A DNA stretch of 32,000 nt from Delftia acidovorans NBRC 14950 (GCF_001598795.1 NZ_BCZP01000010.1:30001-62000), one strand, 5' to 3'; counted from the first letter of the stretch, positions 23,668 through 32,000 are shown. Notes: generated from the letters alone by a model not told the origin. Translations and numbers: made by a program.

Positions 23668-26193
23668 ATGCGCTTTTCTTTCAATGACTTGAAGCTGCCC
23701 GACGCTGTGCTCACAGCCTGGCAAAGGCTGCTGGCCAGCCGCATCGGCCAGCGCGTGGCGGCCCTGCCCTGGTGGCACCGCTGGCCCACGCGGCGCGAAT
23801 GGCTGCTGTTCGCCGCCGCGCTGCCGCTGCTGTTTGCGCTGTATGTGCTGGCCCTGATCCCGTTCACGCCCGGCATCCGCGACATACGCAAGGCCAAGCT
23901 GGAGCAGCCCGCCCAGATCATGAGCGCGGATGGCAAGCAGCTCGCGCAGTTCAAGCGCAGCAACCGGCAATGGGTGAAGCTCGACGAGATGTCGCCCTCG
24001 GTGATCAAGGCGCTGATCGCCACGGAGGACCACCGCTTCTACGAGCACCACGGCATGGACTGGCGGCGCACGCTGGGCTCGGTGGTGCACACGCTGCGCG
24101 GCGATCCGCAGGGCGGCTCCACCCTCACCCAGCAGCTCGCACGCAACCTGTACCCGACCGAAATCGGCCGCGCGCCCACGCTCAACCGCAAGCTCAAGGA
24201 GGCGATCACGGCCTTCAAGATCGAGGCGCTCTACACCAAGGACGAGATCCTCGAGACCTATCTGAACACCGTGCCTTTCCTCTACAACGCCTTCGGCATA
24301 GAGATGGCGGCGCGCACCTATTTCGACAAACCGGCCGCGCGGCTGACGGTGCTGGAAAGCGCCACGCTGGTGGGCATGCTCAAGGGCACGAGCTACTACA
24401 ACCCGGTGCTCAACCCCGACCGCGCGCTGTACCGCCGCAACACGGTGCTGTCGCAAATGGTCAAGCGCGGCGTGCTGCAGGAGGCCGAGTTCGCCCAGCT
24501 CAAGAAGCGCCCCATGCGCATCAACTTCGAGCGCCAGGAAGAGCCCCTGGGCATGGCACCCCACTTCGCGCAGCAGCTGCGCAAATGGCTGATCGACTGG
24601 GCCGACCGCAACGACTACAACATCTACACCGACGGCCTGGTGGTGCACACCACCATCGACTCGCGCCTGCAGAACTGGGCCAACCAGGCCGTGGCGCGCC
24701 AGACGCGCACGCTGCAGGGCGTGGCCAACGGCGCCTGGAGCCAGCGCGACGGCTGGAATGCCGCCAACCCGCTGGTGCAACAGCTGGTGCGGGAGACCCC
24801 CGCCTGGCGCGCGGCGCGCAAACGCGCGGACGGCCAAGGCAAGGACAAGGTAACGGACAAAGACAGCGAGGAAGACACCCTCAAGGCCCTGCTGGCCGAC
24901 AAGGCCTTCATGAAGCAGCTGCGCGAGGACAAGACCCGCGTGCAGGCAGGCTTTGTGGCGCTGAACCCGGCCACCTCCGAAGTGCTGGCCTGGGTGGGCA
25001 GCCGCGACTTCACGCAGGACGCCTACGACCATGTGCAGCAGGCACGGCGACAGCCCGGATCGACCTTCAAGCCCTTTGTCTATGGCGCCGCGCTGCAGCA
25101 GGGCGCCACCCCCGACGACAAGCGCGTGGACGGCCCCGTGGAAATCAAGCTGCCCGGCGGCGAAGTCTGGCGCCCCACCGACGCCACGCCACCCACGGGC
25201 CGCGAGATGACGCTGCGCGACGCCCTGGCCTACTCCAAGAACACCATCACCGCCGAAGTCATGCAGTCCGTGGGCCCCGCCCGCGTGGCGCGCCTGGCGC
25301 GCGCCCTGGGCGTGCGCCAAAGCCCGCTGGACGAAGTGCCCGCCCTGGCCCTGGGCAGCAGCCCCGTGTCACTGCTGGAAATGGTCAACGCCTATGCCAG
25401 CCTGGCCCACGGTGGCCGCTGGCTGCCGCCCATGATGGTCACGCGCATCGAGGACGCCGAGGGCAAAGTCATCGCCGAATTCAGCCCGCCCAAGCCCGAG
25501 CGCGCGCTGGACGAAGACCACGCCTACGCCCTGGTGGACATGCTGCGCGCCGTGGTGGACAAAGGCACGGCCGTGGCCGTGCGCCAGCGCTACGGCATCC
25601 ACGCAGACGTGGCCGGCAAGACCGGCACCACCCAGGGCAATGCCGACGGTTGGTTCATCCTCATGCACCCGGAAATCGTCACCGGCGCCTGGGCCGGCTT
25701 CAACGACCCGCGCATCACCCTGCGCAGCGACCGCTGGGGCCAGGGCTCGCGCAGCGCCCTGCCCATGGTGGGAGACTTCATGTCCCGCGCCCTGCGCAGC
25801 CCTGTCATCGACGCCAAGGCCCGCTTCGAGCCGCCCGAACAAAGCCACTGGTGGTCCGACATGGTCGGCCGCCTGCGCGAACGCATGCAGGACTGGTGGC
25901 CTGACCAGCCGCCGCCCGCACAGCCCGGCCAACCCACCACCCCGGAGCCAGCACCGGCCCCTGAACCCGCACCCGAGCCCACGGAGCCACCCGGCCCGGG
26001 CCTGTCGCCCGGCGAGGAAATCATAGAAAGCACTCCCACCCTGCCCGCCCCCAGCATCCCCCTCACCCAGGGCACACTGGGCCCCACGGACCAGCGCGCA
26101 GTGCAGGAAGCCACCCCCGCCACGCCAGCCCTGCCCAGCGGCGAAGACGTCCCCGCAGGCACCGGCGTAGTGATCACGCCGATCCAGCCCTGA
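23668..26193 (+). CDS. mrcA: Class A penicillin-binding protein 1A (bifunctional glycosyltransferase/transpeptidase)
   Basis: GT51 motifs are ATEDHRFYEHHG and GGSTLTQQLARN. Transpeptidase motifs are STFKPF, SKN and KTGTT. There is an N-terminal membrane anchor and a 97-aa Pro-rich C-terminal tail. Confidence 0.9.
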   Translation: MRFSFNDLKLPDAVLTAWQRLLASRIGQRVAALPWWHRWPTRREWLLFAAALPLLFALYVLALIPFTPGIRDIRKAKLEQPAQIMSADGKQLAQFKRSNRQWVKLDEMSPSVIKALIATEDHRFYEHHGMDWRRTLGSVVHTLRGDPQGGSTLTQQLARNLYPTEIGRAPTLNRKLKEAITAFKIEALYTKDEILETYLNTVPFLYNAFGIEMAARTYFDKPAARLTVLESATLVGMLKGTSYYNPVLNPDRALYRRNTVLSQMVKRGVLQEAEFAQLKKRPMRINFERQEEPLGMAPHFAQQLRKWLIDWADRNDYNIYTDGLVVHTTIDSRLQNWANQAVARQTRTLQGVANGAWSQRDGWNAANPLVQQLVRETPAWRAARKRADGQGKDKVTDKDSEEDTLKALLADKAFMKQLREDKTRVQAGFVALNPATSEVLAWVGSRDFTQDAYDHVQQARRQPGSTFKPFVYGAALQQGATPDDKRVDGPVEIKLPGGEVWRPTDATPPTGREMTLRDALAYSKNTITAEVMQSVGPARVARLARALGVRQSPLDEVPALALGSSPVSLLEMVNAYASLAHGGRWLPPMMVTRIEDAEGKVIAEFSPPKPERALDEDHAYALVDMLRAVVDKGTAVAVRQRYGIHADVAGKTGTTQGNADGWFILMHPEIVTGAWAGFNDPRITLRSDRWGQGSRSALPMVGDFMSRALRSPVIDAKARFEPPEQSHWWSDMVGRLRERMQDWWPDQPPPAQPGQPTTPEPAPAPEPAPEPTEPPGPGLSPGEEIIESTPTLPAPSIPLTQGTLGPTDQRAVQEATPATPALPSGEDVPAGTGVVITPIQP

Positions 26194-26195
26194 CC

Positions 26196-26297
26196 CTGCT
26201 GGCTGCTGGCTGTTGGCTGCTGGCTGTTGGCTGTTGGCTGTTGGCTGTTGGCTGTTGGCTGTTGGCTGTTGGCTGTTGGCTGTTGGCTGTTGGCTGT
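26196..26297. repeat. Heptanucleotide tandem repeat (CTGYTGG), 14 full units plus a partial unit
   Basis: I counted this directly. Units 1, 2 and 4 are CTGCTGG and the other eleven are CTGTTGG. The array begins 3 nt after the PBP1A TGA stop. Confidence 0.95.
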
Positions 26298-27785: not shown

Positions 27786-30710
27786 TTACGCCAGATGCTT
27801 GCCCACGATGCCGGCCAGCTCGAACATGTTCACGCTGTCCTTGCCGAAGACGGGCCGCAGTTTGTCATCGGCGCGGATGACGCGCTTGTCCTTGGGGTCC
27901 TGCAGGTTCTGGGCCTTGACGTATTCCCACAGCTTCTTGACCACTTCGGTACGCGCCACCGTGCCTTCGCCGATGACGGCGGCCAGGGCCGCGCTGGGCT
28001 GCAGCGTGCCGGCGGCCGGCTTGCGCGCGGTCTTGGTGGCGGTCTTGGTGGCCGTCTTTGCCGTGGTCTTGGCCGCGGCTTTCTTGGCAGGCGCCTTCTT
28101 GGCCGGCGCGCTCTTGGCGGCCGCCGTCTTGCGCGGCGGGTACTTGCTGTCGCGCTGCTCGAACTCGAAGTTCACCTTGCCGGCCGCGCCATCCCAGACC
28201 AGGAAGGCCTTGAAGCTGCGGCGCGTGCGGTTGGAGACGAACTTGTCCAGCAGGTCGGTCTTGCCGGTCTGCAGCAGCTTTTGCATCTGCTCGCGCTCTA
28301 TGGGCTGCTGCAGGATGATCTGGCCGCTCTTGAAGTCGCAGCTGGGCGTGGCCTGGGCCAGCGTGGGCACGGCCTTGGCGCAGACGTAGTTGCTGCCGTG
28401 TTCGAAGACGGGCGCGCCGCACTTGGGGCAGGGGCCCAGCGATTGCTGGCTGGCAAAGTCCACCAGCTCGCCCGTGTCTTCGGAGGCGGCGTCGTCGCCA
28501 AAGTCGAACTCGAGCTTGTAGTTGCCGCCTTCCTCATCGTGCACGATGGTGACCTCGGCCACGAAGGGCCAGCCTGCCTTGGAGCGAAAGCCGTCCAGCG
28601 GGCCCAGGCGGCGGTCGCGCAGCAGTTGCTCGGCCTCGGCCGTCTCGAAGGTGCGGCCTGCAGGCGACTTGGTGAACGAGAAGCCGCAGCCCGCGCCCTG
28701 TCCGTCGCTGCCCGTGCAGCCGTAGCGGCGGTAGTTCTCCTTGACCACGCCGCCGCAGTTGGGGCAAGGCGTGGACAGGGTGGCGTAGTCGCCGGGCACG
28801 GTGTCTCGGTCGTATTCCTTGGCCTTCTTGACCAGCTTTTCCGTCATGGACTGGATCTGCTGCATGAAGGCATCGCGCGAGAGCTGGCCCTTTTCCATCT
28901 GCGCCAGCTTGTACTCCCATTCGCCGGTGAGGTCGGCGCGCGAGAGTTCTTCCACGCCCAGGCCACGCAGCAGGGTCATGAGCTGGAAGGCCTTGGCCGT
29001 GGGAATCAGCTCGCGGCCTTCGCGCAGCATGTACTTTTCGGTCAGCAGGCCTTCGATGATGGCCGCGCGCGTGGCAGGCGTGCCCAGGCCCTTTTCCTGC
29101 ATGGCCTCGCGCAGCTCGTCGTCCTCGACCTGCTTGCCGGCGCTTTCCATGGCTCCCAGCAGCGTGGCTTCGGAGTAGCGCGCGGGCGGCTTGGTCTTGA
29201 GGCCCTTGGGATCGACCTGGCCGGCGCGCGGCTGCTCGCCGGGCTGCACCGCGACCAGAGGCTGGCCCTTGTCGCCGTCCTTGCCGCCTTCGACCTCGTT
29301 GGCGGCCTCCTTGCCGTAGATGGCCAGCCAACCGGGCTTGACCAGGATCTTGCCTTCGGTCTTGAAGCTGTGCTGCTCGACCTTGCTGATGCGCGTGGTC
29401 ACCTGGTGCTCGGCGCTGGGGAAGAACACGGCCATGAAGCGGCGCACGACGAGGTCATAGAGCTTTTGCTCGGCCTCGGACAGGCCGCTGGGCGCCTGCG
29501 TGGTCGGGATGATGGCAAAGTGATCCGACACCTTGCTGTTGTCGAAGATGCGCTTGGTCGGGCGCACGTAGTTCTCGTCCAGCGCCTGCTGGGCAAAGGG
29601 TGCCAGGTGGCGCATGCCGCTGCCAGCCAGCATGGCGAAGGTCTGGTGCGCCACGGGCACGTAGTCCTCGGGCAGGGCACGCGAGTCGGTACGCGGGTAG
29701 GTCAGGGCCTTGTGGCGCTCGTACAGGCTTTGCGCCAGCGACAACGTGGTCTTGGCCGAGAAGCCGAACTTGCCGTTGGCCTCGCGCTGCAAACTGGTCA
29801 GGTCGAACAGCAGCGGGCTGGCCTGGGACGTGGGCTTGGACTCCTCGGTGACCTGGGCCGGCTTGCCGCGCACGGCGTCGGCAATGGCCTGGGCGTCGCG
29901 CTGGTTCCAGATGCGGTCGGCGCGGGCTTCCGCATCCTCGCTCTTCTTCCATTGCGTGTCGAACCACTTGCCCAGGTACTGCCCGGCCTGCGCATCGAAG
30001 GCGGCATGCACTTCCCAGTAGTCGCGGCTCACGAACTTGCGGATCTTTTCCTCGCGCTCCACCACCAGGGACAGCGTGGGCGTCTGCACTCGGCCCACGG
30101 TGGTCAGGAAGAAGCCGCCATCGCGCGAATTGAAGGCCGTCATGGCGCGCGTGCCGTTGATGCCCACCAGCCAGTCGGCCTCGGAGCGGCTGCGCGCGGC
30201 GCTGGCCAGGCCCAGCATCTGCGCGTCGCTGCGCAGGTTCTGGAAGCCGTCGCGGATGGCCTGCGGCGTCATGGACTGCAGCCACAGGCGCTTGACCGGC
30301 TTGCCCAGGCCCTTGCCGTCGGGCTTGGCGCCTGCGGCGTACTGCTCGATCAAGCGGAAGATCAGCTCACCCTCGCGGCCCGCGTCGCAGGCGTTGATGA
30401 GTTCGGTGACATCCTTGCGCTTGGCCAGCTTGACCACGGCATTGAGCCGGCTCTTGGTCTTGTCCACGGGCTTGAGGTCGAAATACGGCGGAATCACCGG
30501 CAGGTTGGCAAAACTCCATTTGCCGCGCTTGACGTCGAATTCCTCGGGTGCCTGGATTTCCACCAGGTGGCCCACGGCGCTGGTCACGACGTAGTGCTCG
30601 CTCTCGAAGTATTCATCGTGCTTGTCGAATTTGCCCGCCACCGGAGTCAACGCGCGGACGATGTCCTGCGCGACCGAAGGCTTCTCAGCAATCACCAGGG
30701 TCTTTGTCAT
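27786..30710 (-). CDS. topB: DNA topoisomerase III with C-terminal zinc-ribbon/topoisomerase C-terminal repeats, Lys/Ala-rich linker and SWIB/MDM2 domain
   Basis: The TOPRIM N-terminus is MTKTLVIAEKPSVAQDI. The active-site Tyr region is ALTYPRTDSRALPEDY. CxxC zinc ribbons are present (CPNCGG, CPKCGA). The linker reads AKSAPAKKAPAKKAAAKTTAKTATKTATKTARK. The terminal 70-75 aa, ...VARTEVVKKLWEYVKAQNLQDPKDKRVIRADDKLRPVFGKDSVNMFELAGIVGKHL, has the SWIB pattern (about 27789..28013). Confidence 0.9.
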   Translation of the reverse strand: MTKTLVIAEKPSVAQDIVRALTPVAGKFDKHDEYFESEHYVVTSAVGHLVEIQAPEEFDVKRGKWSFANLPVIPPYFDLKPVDKTKSRLNAVVKLAKRKDVTELINACDAGREGELIFRLIEQYAAGAKPDGKGLGKPVKRLWLQSMTPQAIRDGFQNLRSDAQMLGLASAARSRSEADWLVGINGTRAMTAFNSRDGGFFLTTVGRVQTPTLSLVVEREEKIRKFVSRDYWEVHAAFDAQAGQYLGKWFDTQWKKSEDAEARADRIWNQRDAQAIADAVRGKPAQVTEESKPTSQASPLLFDLTSLQREANGKFGFSAKTTLSLAQSLYERHKALTYPRTDSRALPEDYVPVAHQTFAMLAGSGMRHLAPFAQQALDENYVRPTKRIFDNSKVSDHFAIIPTTQAPSGLSEAEQKLYDLVVRRFMAVFFPSAEHQVTTRISKVEQHSFKTEGKILVKPGWLAIYGKEAANEVEGGKDGDKGQPLVAVQPGEQPRAGQVDPKGLKTKPPARYSEATLLGAMESAGKQVEDDELREAMQEKGLGTPATRAAIIEGLLTEKYMLREGRELIPTAKAFQLMTLLRGLGVEELSRADLTGEWEYKLAQMEKGQLSRDAFMQQIQSMTEKLVKKAKEYDRDTVPGDYATLSTPCPNCGGVVKENYRRYGCTGSDGQGAGCGFSFTKSPAGRTFETAEAEQLLRDRRLGPLDGFRSKAGWPFVAEVTIVHDEEGGNYKLEFDFGDDAASEDTGELVDFASQQSLGPCPKCGAPVFEHGSNYVCAKAVPTLAQATPSCDFKSGQIILQQPIEREQMQKLLQTGKTDLLDKFVSNRTRRSFKAFLVWDGAAGKVNFEFEQRDSKYPPRKTAAAKSAPAKKAPAKKAAAKTTAKTATKTATKTARKPAAGTLQPSAALAAVIGEGTVARTEVVKKLWEYVKAQNLQDPKDKRVIRADDKLRPVFGKDSVNMFELAGIVGKHLA

Positions 30711-30775
30711 TGTGTGTACTCGTCATTCCCCGCAGGACCTGCATGTCGCAGCCTGCGCTTCTACAATCCATGGCT

Positions 30776-30814
30776 CACGCGTGTACGTACGTGTACGCGC
30801 ACGCGCATGTGTGC
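30776..30814. other. 39-nt perfectly alternating pyrimidine-purine tract (Z-DNA-prone) in the topB / SET divergent promoter region
   Basis: The sequence CACGCGTGTACGTACGTGTACGCGCACGCGCATGTGTGC alternates Y-R at every one of its 39 positions. It contains CGTGTACG twice at a 10-bp period (30780..30787 and 30790..30797) and the palindrome GTACGTAC. Confidence 0.9.
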
Positions 30815-30837
30815 CTATTCAAGTTATCAGAGAAAAC

Positions 30838-31500
30838 ATGCCCCGCACAGCTTTGGCCCCTTCCGGCGGCCGCCGTATCCAGACCCGCCGCTCGGGTGTC
30901 CATGGCAAGGGCGTCTTCGCCGCGCAGGATCTTGCCGAAGGAGAGGTCCTTGTCGAGTACGTAGGGGAAATCGTCAGCTGGCAGGAAGCCCAGGACCGGC
31001 ATCCGCACGACCCCAGCCAGCCCAACCATACCTTCTACTTCCACGTGGACGAAGACCGCGTGATCGACGCCAACTATGGCGGCAACTCCTCGCGCTGGAT
31101 CAACCACAGCTGCGCTCCCAATTGCTACACCGACGAGCGCGATGGCCGGATTTTCATCGTCGCGCTGCGCAACATCGCCGCCGGCGAGGAGCTGAGCTAC
31201 GACTACGGCCTGATCATCGACGAACCCTACACCAGGAAGCTGAAGGCCGAGTATCCATGCTGGTGCGGCGCAGCCACCTGCCGCGGCACGCTGCTGGCGC
31301 CCAAGCGCGGCTGGCGCCCGCCCATGCCCGGCGATGCATTGCCGGCCAGCGCAAAGCCGGCATCGGAACAATCTGAAAAGACAAAGCGGGCCAAAAAGCA
31401 GCAGGTCAAAGCGGAAAAGCCTTTGGAAAAGCCCTTGGAAAAGGCCCCCCAAAAGCCAAGGAAAAAATCCCGCAAATCCTCCACAAAGGCCGGCGCATGA
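30838..31500 (+). CDS. SET-domain protein-lysine N-methyltransferase with Lys-rich C-terminal tail
   Basis: The SET core reads RSGVHGKGVFA...GEVLVEYVGEIV...RWINHSCAPNC...GEELSYDYG. The post-SET Cys motif is CWCGAATCRG. The tail reads EKTKRAKKQQVKAEKPLEKPLEKAPQKPRKKSRKSSTKAGA. The start is the internal ATG at 30838 of ORF 30622..31500. Confidence 0.85.
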   Translation: MPRTALAPSGGRRIQTRRSGVHGKGVFAAQDLAEGEVLVEYVGEIVSWQEAQDRHPHDPSQPNHTFYFHVDEDRVIDANYGGNSSRWINHSCAPNCYTDERDGRIFIVALRNIAAGEELSYDYGLIIDEPYTRKLKAEYPCWCGAATCRGTLLAPKRGWRPPMPGDALPASAKPASEQSEKTKRAKKQQVKAEKPLEKPLEKAPQKPRKKSRKSSTKAGA

Positions 31501-32000
31501 TGGCATCGTCCCCCATTCACTGGCCTGCGGAATCGCTGTGGCAGGCCATCGAGCCGCAGTTGCCGGGCTTTTCCGTGGAAATCGTGCCCAGCATCGGCTC
31601 GACCAATACCGAGCTGATGGCGCGCGCCCGCGATGGCCGCAACGAACCCGTGCTGCTGGTGACCGAAGTGCAGACCGCCGGCCGGGGCCGGCTGGGCCGC
31701 CAGTGGACCAGCGGCGTGGGCGATTCGCTGACCTTCTCGCTGGGCATGCCGCTGGCGCCTGCCGACTGGTCCGGCCTGTCGCTGGCCGTGGGCCTGAGCG
31801 TGGCGCAAAGCCTGCAGCCGCAATTGCCCGCCCCGGGCTCGCAGCGCCCGCGCATCGGCCTCAAATGGCCCAACGACCTGTGGATCGACGGCGACCGCAA
31901 GCTCGGCGGCATCCTGATCGAGACGGCCAGCTTTGTCGGCAGCGCCGCGCATGAGCCCGGCACGCCGCGCTACGTGGTCGTGGGCATCGGCCTGAACGTG
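31497..32000 (+). CDS. birA: Biotin-[acetyl-CoA-carboxylase] ligase, N-terminal part (runs off the right edge); group I type without an HTH domain
   Basis: My hand translation from the ATG at 31497 gives MMASSPIHWPAESLWQAIEPQLPGFSVEIVPSIGSTNTELMARARDG...VLLVTEVQTAGRGRLGRQWTSGVGDSLTFSLGM...LKWPNDLWIDGDRKLGGILIE. The hallmark GRGRxGRxW and KWPND motifs are present. The ATG overlaps the SET stop codon (ATGA). The ORF is not in the track because it has no stop inside the window. Confidence 0.8.
   Translation, partial: MMASSPIHWPAESLWQAIEPQLPGFSVEIVPSIGSTNTELMARARDGRNEPVLLVTEVQTAGRGRLGRQWTSGVGDSLTFSLGMPLAPADWSGLSLAVGLSVAQSLQPQLPAPGSQRPRIGLKWPNDLWIDGDRKLGGILIETASFVGSAAHEPGTPRYVVVGIGLNV

Follow-up and report, generated by a model that had tools for sequence, protein, structure and literature searches.

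What does a gene for a predicted SET-domain lysine methyltransferase do beside a topoisomerase gene in a free-living bacterium? To our knowledge, bacterial SET proteins have been discussed almost entirely as effectors directed against host histones. The question is raised by a 32,000-nucleotide stretch of Delftia acidovorans NBRC 14950 (GCF_001598795.1, NZ_BCZP01000010.1:30001-62000; hereafter the window, with positions counted from its first letter and a GC content of ~66-70%), in which topB, encoding a DNA topoisomerase III that ends in a SWIB domain, lies back to back with a SET gene that runs into birA, the gene for biotin-protein ligase. A first-pass annotation of this DNA had proposed that the SET enzyme acts on proteins of the cell's own nucleoid, with the Lys-rich tails of TopB or of SET itself as candidate substrates. 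Comparison across species places topB next to SET in every Comamonadaceae and Sphaerotilaceae locus recovered, and the short spacer between the divergent genes carries an alternating purine-pyrimidine tract that is conserved in its alternation. We favor the view that the locus is a chromosomal module passed on vertically in Burkholderiales, with endogenous Lys-rich targets and a supercoil-linked spacer, and not an effector island, and we give this reading roughly even odds (about 0.5).

Linkage of topB, SET and birA

To address how widely the arrangement is shared, an alignment of the SET protein was searched against one genome per species, which returned 80 loci, all from Comamonadaceae or from the Sphaerotilaceae group, the latter including Ideonella, Methylibium, Aquabacterium, Rhizobacter, and Roseateles. 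topB is immediately upstream of SET on the opposite strand in all 80 of these loci, and birA follows SET in 79, the exception being a truncated contig. The start codon of birA overlaps the SET stop codon (ATGA), which suggests that the two genes are cotranscribed, and the complete birA product, taken from identical Delftia loci, has 276 amino acids (aa) and BPL_LplA_LipB and BPL_C domains. With this overlap and with topB adjoining, the housekeeping context that had been claimed for SET is borne out. On the far side of topB, the genes present in Delftia (a Y_phosphatase3 gene and a gene for a class A penicillin-binding protein) are without conservation across related loci, so that the topB-SET-birA block is more stable than surroundings that turn over around it. 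No secretion-system genes were found within 10 kb on either side of the SET loci. Free-living genera with SET as a core gene include Limnohabitans, Rhodoferax, Polaromonas, Hydrogenophaga, and Variovorax, and the core status of SET in many free-living freshwater and soil genera counts against a dedicated effector of host histones.

The linkage extends beyond the two families in altered forms. In a lineage whose SET protein is 59% identical, topB-SWIB and SET are divergent and a flavin adenine dinucleotide (FAD)-monooxygenase gene takes the place of birA. The divergent orientation is found in Comamonadaceae, Sphaerotilaceae, and the L087 lineage, while in some Alcaligenaceae-type lineages smg, topB, and SET lie on one strand, with topB and SET 13 bp apart in a Pigmentiphaga-like contig and 237 bp apart in another locus (L089); Verticiella sediminum and one further locus (L090) have three inserted genes between topB and SET. 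The TopB proteins of the codirectional type belong to the same PRK08173/PRK14724 family and have AKKA tails without SWIB. A metagenome sample provided 80 Alcaligenaceae-like SET loci, 67 of them informative. topB is upstream of SET in the same orientation and within 6 kb in 33 of the 67, about half of these being directly adjacent (three further ribB-flanked loci with topB 4-5 kb upstream are counted within the 33), whereas 26 were classed as the bestrophin/SET/ribB type, which Bordetella bronchiseptica and Achromobacter also have, and 8 are of other types. More distant SET homologues, ~40% identical, were found twice between thyA and folA, once beside suf genes, and once beside an FAA hydrolase gene. 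In two loci with gammaproteobacteria-like gene content (L093, 7169-9493, and L094, 7196-8669), lgt and thyA are followed by a SET gene whose product has an extended Lys-rich tail, and in the first of these SET lies between thyA and folA, another housekeeping context.

No independent reassociation of topB and SET was seen across the lineages compared. The simplest history would be an ancestral Burkholderiales linkage followed by one inversion, with the linkage kept strictly in Comamonadaceae and Sphaerotilaceae and eroding in Alcaligenaceae. The first-pass annotation would have counted confinement of the adjacency to one genus against its own proposal; the adjacency reaches far beyond one genus, into all 80 species loci and other Burkholderiales, in a pattern that looks like inherited synteny and not like repeated independent association. 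As evidence for functional coupling, the conserved linkage is moderate, not decisive.

The divergent spacer

The 127-bp spacer between topB and SET (Table 1) has an order of elements that recurs in loci L006-L088 and in the window: a -10-like TACAAT box facing SET, a gap of 7-10 nt (in 63 of 77 loci), the alternating tract, an A/T-rich block specific to each lineage, and then the start codon of SET. The tract stands out from its background. Elsewhere in the window the longest alternating run is 15 nt, and ~1.47 Mb of other flanking DNA yielded just ~20 runs, all of 16-19 nt, mostly coding and none with a TACAAT box. Of the 82 spacers, 67 have a longest run of 16 nt or more, 55 of 20 nt or more, and 26 of 30 nt or more, and the longest run of all is 61 nt. 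Although tract sequences and lengths (16-63 nt) vary, 95% of the steps alternate (CG 564, CA 418, TG 160, TA 66), and we conclude that alternation has been conserved over sequence. The tract is absent upstream of SET in the 80 Alcaligenaceae-like loci and in the codirectional loci, and among the loci compared it is confined to the divergent topB/SET arrangement. It is a candidate supercoil-sensitive control element and may serve in nature to sense DNA twisting.

Other signals were sought in the same DNA. An Rfam scan of the spacer by E value gave only chance microRNA-like matches (E>3), an Rfam scan of the whole window at gathering thresholds gave no match, and a scan of positions 30600-30950 for consensus sigma-70 promoters and terminators found no full -35/-10 pair and nothing else. 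Some database SET proteins (P0241, P0243, P0253, and the locus L087, 8001-8093) carry additional N-terminal residues, for example MHAHTHTHVRAR or RAHMHTITIT; as this added sequence is the translated alternating tract, the start codons of those entries are probably miscalled. Spacers of the Acidovorax type (L007-L013) have, ~15-45 nt from TACAAT toward topB, a GC-rich inverted repeat that preserves its pairing despite changes in sequence (CCCGGATTCCGGG and CCGGCACGCTGCCGG are examples) and that might act as an operator or form a hairpin within the leader of topB. Spacers of the Rhodoferax type are too short to hold such a repeat.

The two proteins and their tails

We take the ATG at 30838 as the start of SET, in agreement with the gene call of five public assemblies; the listed open reading frame begins at a TTG at 30622. 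This start gives a protein of 220 aa and the 127-bp gap to topB. The Pfam SET domain (PF00856) spans residues 23-124 (E 1.6e-25; 90 bits against a cutoff of 22.4), and the translation contains HGKG, INHSCAPNC, EELSYDY with the catalytic Tyr, and CWCGAATC, the post-SET CxCx4C zinc cluster. Across 98 representatives of the SET family, conservation is 90% or higher at residues G23, G25, H90, C92, P94, N95, Y123, C141, C143, and C148. The closest solved structure by sequence is the MLL1 SET domain (E 1e-27), which is also the best Foldseek match (2w5z; E 7e-15, 36% identity), with target-normalized TM-scores of at most ~0.8 among the matches. In the AlphaFold model, the core (residues 11-160) has a predicted local distance difference test score (pLDDT) of 89-98. 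The protein is a minimal SET enzyme of the MLL/SET1 structural type with all catalytic and zinc-cluster motifs intact. It is 100% identical in several Delftia assemblies, including CP002735.1.

The Lys-rich C-terminal tail of SET, which is likely disordered given its low model confidence, contains a 12-bp in-frame tandem repeat (31413-31443). This tail is labile. By a simple criterion, 31 of 81 orthologues have a basic extension, C-terminal in 18 and N-terminal in 17, and the majority of orthologues are minimal proteins of 155-165 aa. AKKA- or HC2-like tails nevertheless recur at either terminus across the 15,294 cluster representatives that make up the wider SET family (E<=0.001). In one distant homologue (L092, 8001-8768), precomputed annotation matches the tail to Pfam HC2, the chlamydial histone H1-like protein. 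The idea that SET's own tail is a general substrate does not hold with a basic tail in so few orthologues, and self-methylation as a general function was rejected on the same count, the basic extension occurring at either terminus.

TopB matches the NCBIfam equivalog PRK14724 over its full length (2071 bits, cutoff 1088; residues 1-974 on profile positions 1-988), with Pfam Toprim, Topoisom_bac (E 3.6e-110), two Toprim_Crpt (E 1.1e-34), and SWIB domains; the chlamydial topoisomerase I/SWIB model PRK06319 in NCBIfam reaches 191 bits, below its cutoff of 868. The full-length match indicates that the TopB-SWIB fusion is real but that its family is already curated, and the description of the proposed module as largely unexplored is in this respect too strong. 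The features described in the first-pass annotation were all confirmed at their coordinates: the minus-strand topB with its repeat linker and C-terminal SWIB domain, by Pfam and translation; the divergent SET gene 127 bp away with a complete catalytic core and Lys-rich tail, by the ATG at 30838, Pfam, and motifs; and the SET, SWIB, and Toprim_Crpt assignments, all supported by Pfam profiles. Neither protein had been thought to carry a signal peptide, and no hydrophobic signal-like segment was seen by eye at either N terminus, where no signal predictor was run.

Between the last zinc-ribbon repeat and SWIB, TopB has the linker stretch KYPPRKTAAAKSAPAKKAPAKKAAAKTTAKTATKTATKTARKPAAG, part of which is encoded by in-frame 12- and 15-bp tandem repeats (28027-28139). 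TopB ranges from 969 to 974 aa across Delftia strains with an identical SET protein. The short tandem DNA repeats and this length variation suggest that the tails of TopB and SET evolve by replication slippage. A basic Ala/Lys-rich segment is present in all 66 complete TopB C termini from loci with an adjacent SET (15-73 aa; median K+R fraction, 0.28), and in Comamonadaceae the SWIB domain follows it. The tails had been called histone-H1-like; they are indeed basic, but the TopB region falls short of the H1-like equivalog NF038053 hist_H1_lk_Burk (NCBIfam; 18.1 bits, cutoff 80), and the likeness to H1 is in composition only. A [P/A]-R-K motif (KAPRK, KTPRK, TARKP) lies 10-20 residues before SWIB in 37 of 44 SWIB-type TopB proteins (~28010-28040 in the window), and K[F/Y]PPRK occurs at the opening of the tail; within this low-complexity region, the [P/A]-R-K motif appears to resemble the R-K target contexts of histone tails.

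SWIB itself is present in 44 of the 66 C termini and absent in 22. Because SET adjoins TopB both with and without SWIB, its pairing is tied to topB and not to SWIB, and the proposal that SET and SWIB form a module fails on those 22 proteins. Covariation of SET with SWIB was likewise rejected, as SET stays beside TopB proteins that have no SWIB.

Among the neighboring features, a 245-aa gene with an N-terminal hydrophobic segment follows birA in most loci (L001, 11526-12263, past the window end) and has no Pfam or NCBIfam match. Directly past the stop codon of the class A penicillin-binding protein gene (23668-26193), the 7-bp unit CTGTTGG is repeated 14.6 times in tandem with 96% matches (26196-26297), and the spacer that holds this repeat differs in length between Delftia strains.

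Table 1. Features of the topB/SET/birA locus in the window
Feature	Position	Strand	Basis
topB, DNA topoisomerase III (PRK14724 type), 974 aa	27786..30710	-	NCBIfam and Pfam
SWIB/MDM2 domain (PF02201), TopB aa 904-973	27792..28001	-	E 2.1e-27, 95.1 bits, cutoff 25
Basic Ala/Lys/Thr/Pro-rich TopB linker, ~aa 856-903	28002..28145	-	Read from translation
Divergent topB/SET control region (candidate), 127 bp	30711..30837	.	Composite architecture in 77/82 loci
TACAAT, -10-like hexamer facing SET	30762..30767	+	TACAAT in 72/77 loci
39-nt perfectly alternating purine-pyrimidine tract CACGCGTGTACGTACGTGTACGCGCACGCGCATGTGTGC, Z-DNA-prone	30776..30814	.	Alternation scan
SET-domain protein lysine methyltransferase (predicted), 220 aa	30838..31500	+	Pfam SET PF00856
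Lys-rich C-terminal SET tail, aa 161-220	31318..31497	+	pLDDT ~50-65
birA (biotin-protein ligase), 5' part	31497..32000	+	ATG at 31497 overlaps SET stop (ATGA)

A proposed endogenous module, its rivals, and known systems

Under the reading that we favor, SET would be an active enzyme that uses S-adenosylmethionine to methylate lysines on the cell's own DNA-associated, Lys-rich proteins, candidates being the TopB tail, H1-like proteins, and HU-like proteins, and methylation would tune how tightly Lys-rich tails hold DNA. That the target is endogenous we regard as probable; that it is the TopB tail, a candidate put forward by gene neighborhood, is doubtful. The divergent genes would share a control region made of the TACAAT box and a 20-60-bp alternating CG/CA tract, and this tract would respond to negative supercoiling as a B-to-Z switch, coupling expression of the topoisomerase, of SET-birA, or of both to local torsion. 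We offer the coupling of both genes to supercoiling as a tentative proposal. A stronger form is a long shot: negative supercoiling, including that from divergent transcription itself, would flip the tract to the Z-form, which would absorb torsion and reset both promoters, placing topoisomerase and methyltransferase under direct topological feedback. If true, this would be a bacterial circuit tying DNA topology to protein methylation. On comparative grounds, the survival of the adjacency through a change of orientation argues for a functional module, and the H1/HC2-like AKKA tails in many SET family members point to an endogenous role.

Several observations weigh against this reading. topB and SET are unlinked in B. 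bronchiseptica and Achromobacter, and Alcaligenaceae-type contigs have 1-5-kb insertions of unrelated genes between them; together, the inserted genes and unlinked loci indicate that tight linkage is dispensable. Gene adjacency is no evidence of an enzyme-substrate relation. According to published reports, SET relatives in Burkholderia and Bordetella are effectors that are targeted to the nucleolus and methylate histone H3 lysine 4 (H3K4) of the host (PMC3980110, PMC7819608). In the spacer, TACAAT has no recognizable -35 partner. The tract is also asymmetric between strands, with A exceeding T in 61 loci against 8 with the reverse and CA exceeding TG (418 against 160), a bias that Z-DNA alone does not predict and that suggests that the SET leader transcript also includes the tract. 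Finally, the critical superhelical density of about -0.037, for a 10-kb domain, is a rough two-state estimate with B-Z parameters from the literature; taken at face value, it would be reachable by transcription-driven supercoiling between divergent promoters.

The strand bias bears on the possibility that the tract acts as RNA, either by forming a GC-rich hairpin in the 5' end of the leader of SET-birA, serving stability or the control of translation, or through antisense overlap of the topB and SET 5' untranslated regions. The tract starts 7-10 nt past the -10-like box, where a transcript would begin, every tract folds into a stable hairpin, and the strand-specific excess of A over T and of CA over TG removes upstream ATG and GTG triplets on the SET sense strand. 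Predicted folding energies, however, are scarcely below those of alternation-preserving shuffled sequences (mean z -0.34, on either strand), which indicates that the hairpin potential is a by-product of alternation, and a hairpin does not need perfect alternation across its loops and over 30-60 nt. No Rfam family was matched, and there is no informative covariation because the stems are invariant CGCGCG. We consider an RNA role rather unlikely.

Unlikely as well, in our estimate, is inherited synteny without functional coupling, in which the SET target would have nothing to do with DNA topology (for example, a translation factor, a ribosomal protein or, in view of the birA link, a biotin-pathway protein) and the TopB tail would be a DNA-binding appendage. 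A single ancestral gene order that was inverted once and then decayed by 1-5-kb insertions and by separation in the Bordetella/Achromobacter type is what such synteny would leave, distant SET lineages lie beside thyA/folA, suf, or other genes, and within both families the birA linkage is as strict as the topB linkage. Yet the flanks of topB turn over while its adjacency to SET holds in all 80 loci, the adjacency is found in both orientations, the divergent form appears to have gained a dedicated, conserved, shared control element, albeit a candidate one, and DNA-binding-type AKKA tails occur in many family members.

The remaining alternative is that SET is a host-directed effector like BtSET, LegAS4/RomA, or NUE, delivered into protists or other eukaryotic cells, where it would methylate histones, with its tail as a nuclear or nucleolar signal and its place beside topB incidental; its catalytic domain is closest to eukaryotic H3K4 methyltransferases, its sole NCBIfam match is a LegAS4 effector model, basic tails could serve as nuclear localization signals, and a B. 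bronchiseptica orthologue in the same protein family is, like a Burkholderia thailandensis relative, described as an effector (PMC3980110, PMC7819608). We judge this improbable and the effector paradigm a poor fit to the SET context, since the match to that model (NF043024 T4SS_AnkI/LegAS4) scores 42.7 bits where the cutoff is 550, with an alignment confined to the SET core, in a protein of 220 aa against 439 model positions, and since SET is a syntenic core gene in 80 of 80 species, most of which live freely in plankton or soil, overlaps birA or lies just before it, has no secretion-system genes within 10 kb, and in most orthologues has no basic tail.

The endogenous module that we favor has its nearest parallel in Chlamydiae, where a type IA topoisomerase with a C-terminal SWIB domain (TopA-SWIB, CT643; PRK06319) and a small SET methyltransferase (NUE/cpnSET) occur in one genome. 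cpnSET has been reported to methylate the H1-like proteins Hc1 and Hc2 (PMC6426960, PMC7819608). Unlike the chlamydial enzyme, the Delftia topoisomerase is a topoisomerase III and not TopA (PRK06319, 191 against 868; PRK14724, 2071), and Delftia is free-living, whereas NUE is a secreted effector on host histones. The Delftia genes are physically adjacent. Closer in taxonomy are BtSET of B. thailandensis and the LegAS4-like Bordetella proteins, which are also small Burkholderiales SET proteins, the B. bronchiseptica one being homologous, and for which a role as type III secretion effectors, with H3K4 methylation at ribosomal DNA of the host, has been reported (PMC3980110, PMC7819608). In contrast to Delftia, B. 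bronchiseptica and Achromobacter have SET flanked by a bestrophin-like gene and ribB, away from topB.

Closer in proposed mode of action is the archaeal Methanosarcina mazei Go1-SET, which methylates MC1-alpha, a small basic protein of the cell's own that binds DNA (table in PMC3980110). The mode of action proposed for Delftia SET is the same, but the archaeal enzyme comes from another domain of life and has no topoisomerase link. For the TopB tail, a counterpart is found in actinobacterial topoisomerase I, in which C-terminal lysine repeats stabilize the enzyme-DNA complex and raise processivity (PMC5714199), although that enzyme is TopA, with no SWIB and no SET neighbor described. By analogy, the Delftia TopB tail could have a DNA-binding role that is modulated by methylation.

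A literature search for a link among SET, SWIB, and topoisomerases outside Chlamydiae found none. The gene families are known, and the topB/SET(-birA) module with its Z-prone spacer appears to be undescribed in the literature searched. A strictly syntenic core SET gene beside topB and birA provides a tractable system for the roles of SET proteins inside bacteria, and Delftia, Acidovorax, and Variovorax can be cultured. Alternating purine-pyrimidine tracts adopt the Z-form under negative supercoiling, including that generated by transcription (PMC13463272). With alternation, and not sequence, conserved in 67 of 82 loci, the topB/SET tract is a specific natural test case that can be mutated and directly probed. 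Engineered (CG)n and (CA)n Z-DNA tracts were reportedly used as supercoiling probes in Escherichia coli by Peck and Wang in 1985 and by Rahmouni and Wells in 1989. Those tracts were artificial inserts, whereas the tract between topB and SET is natural, conserved across two families, and located at the control region of a topoisomerase gene.

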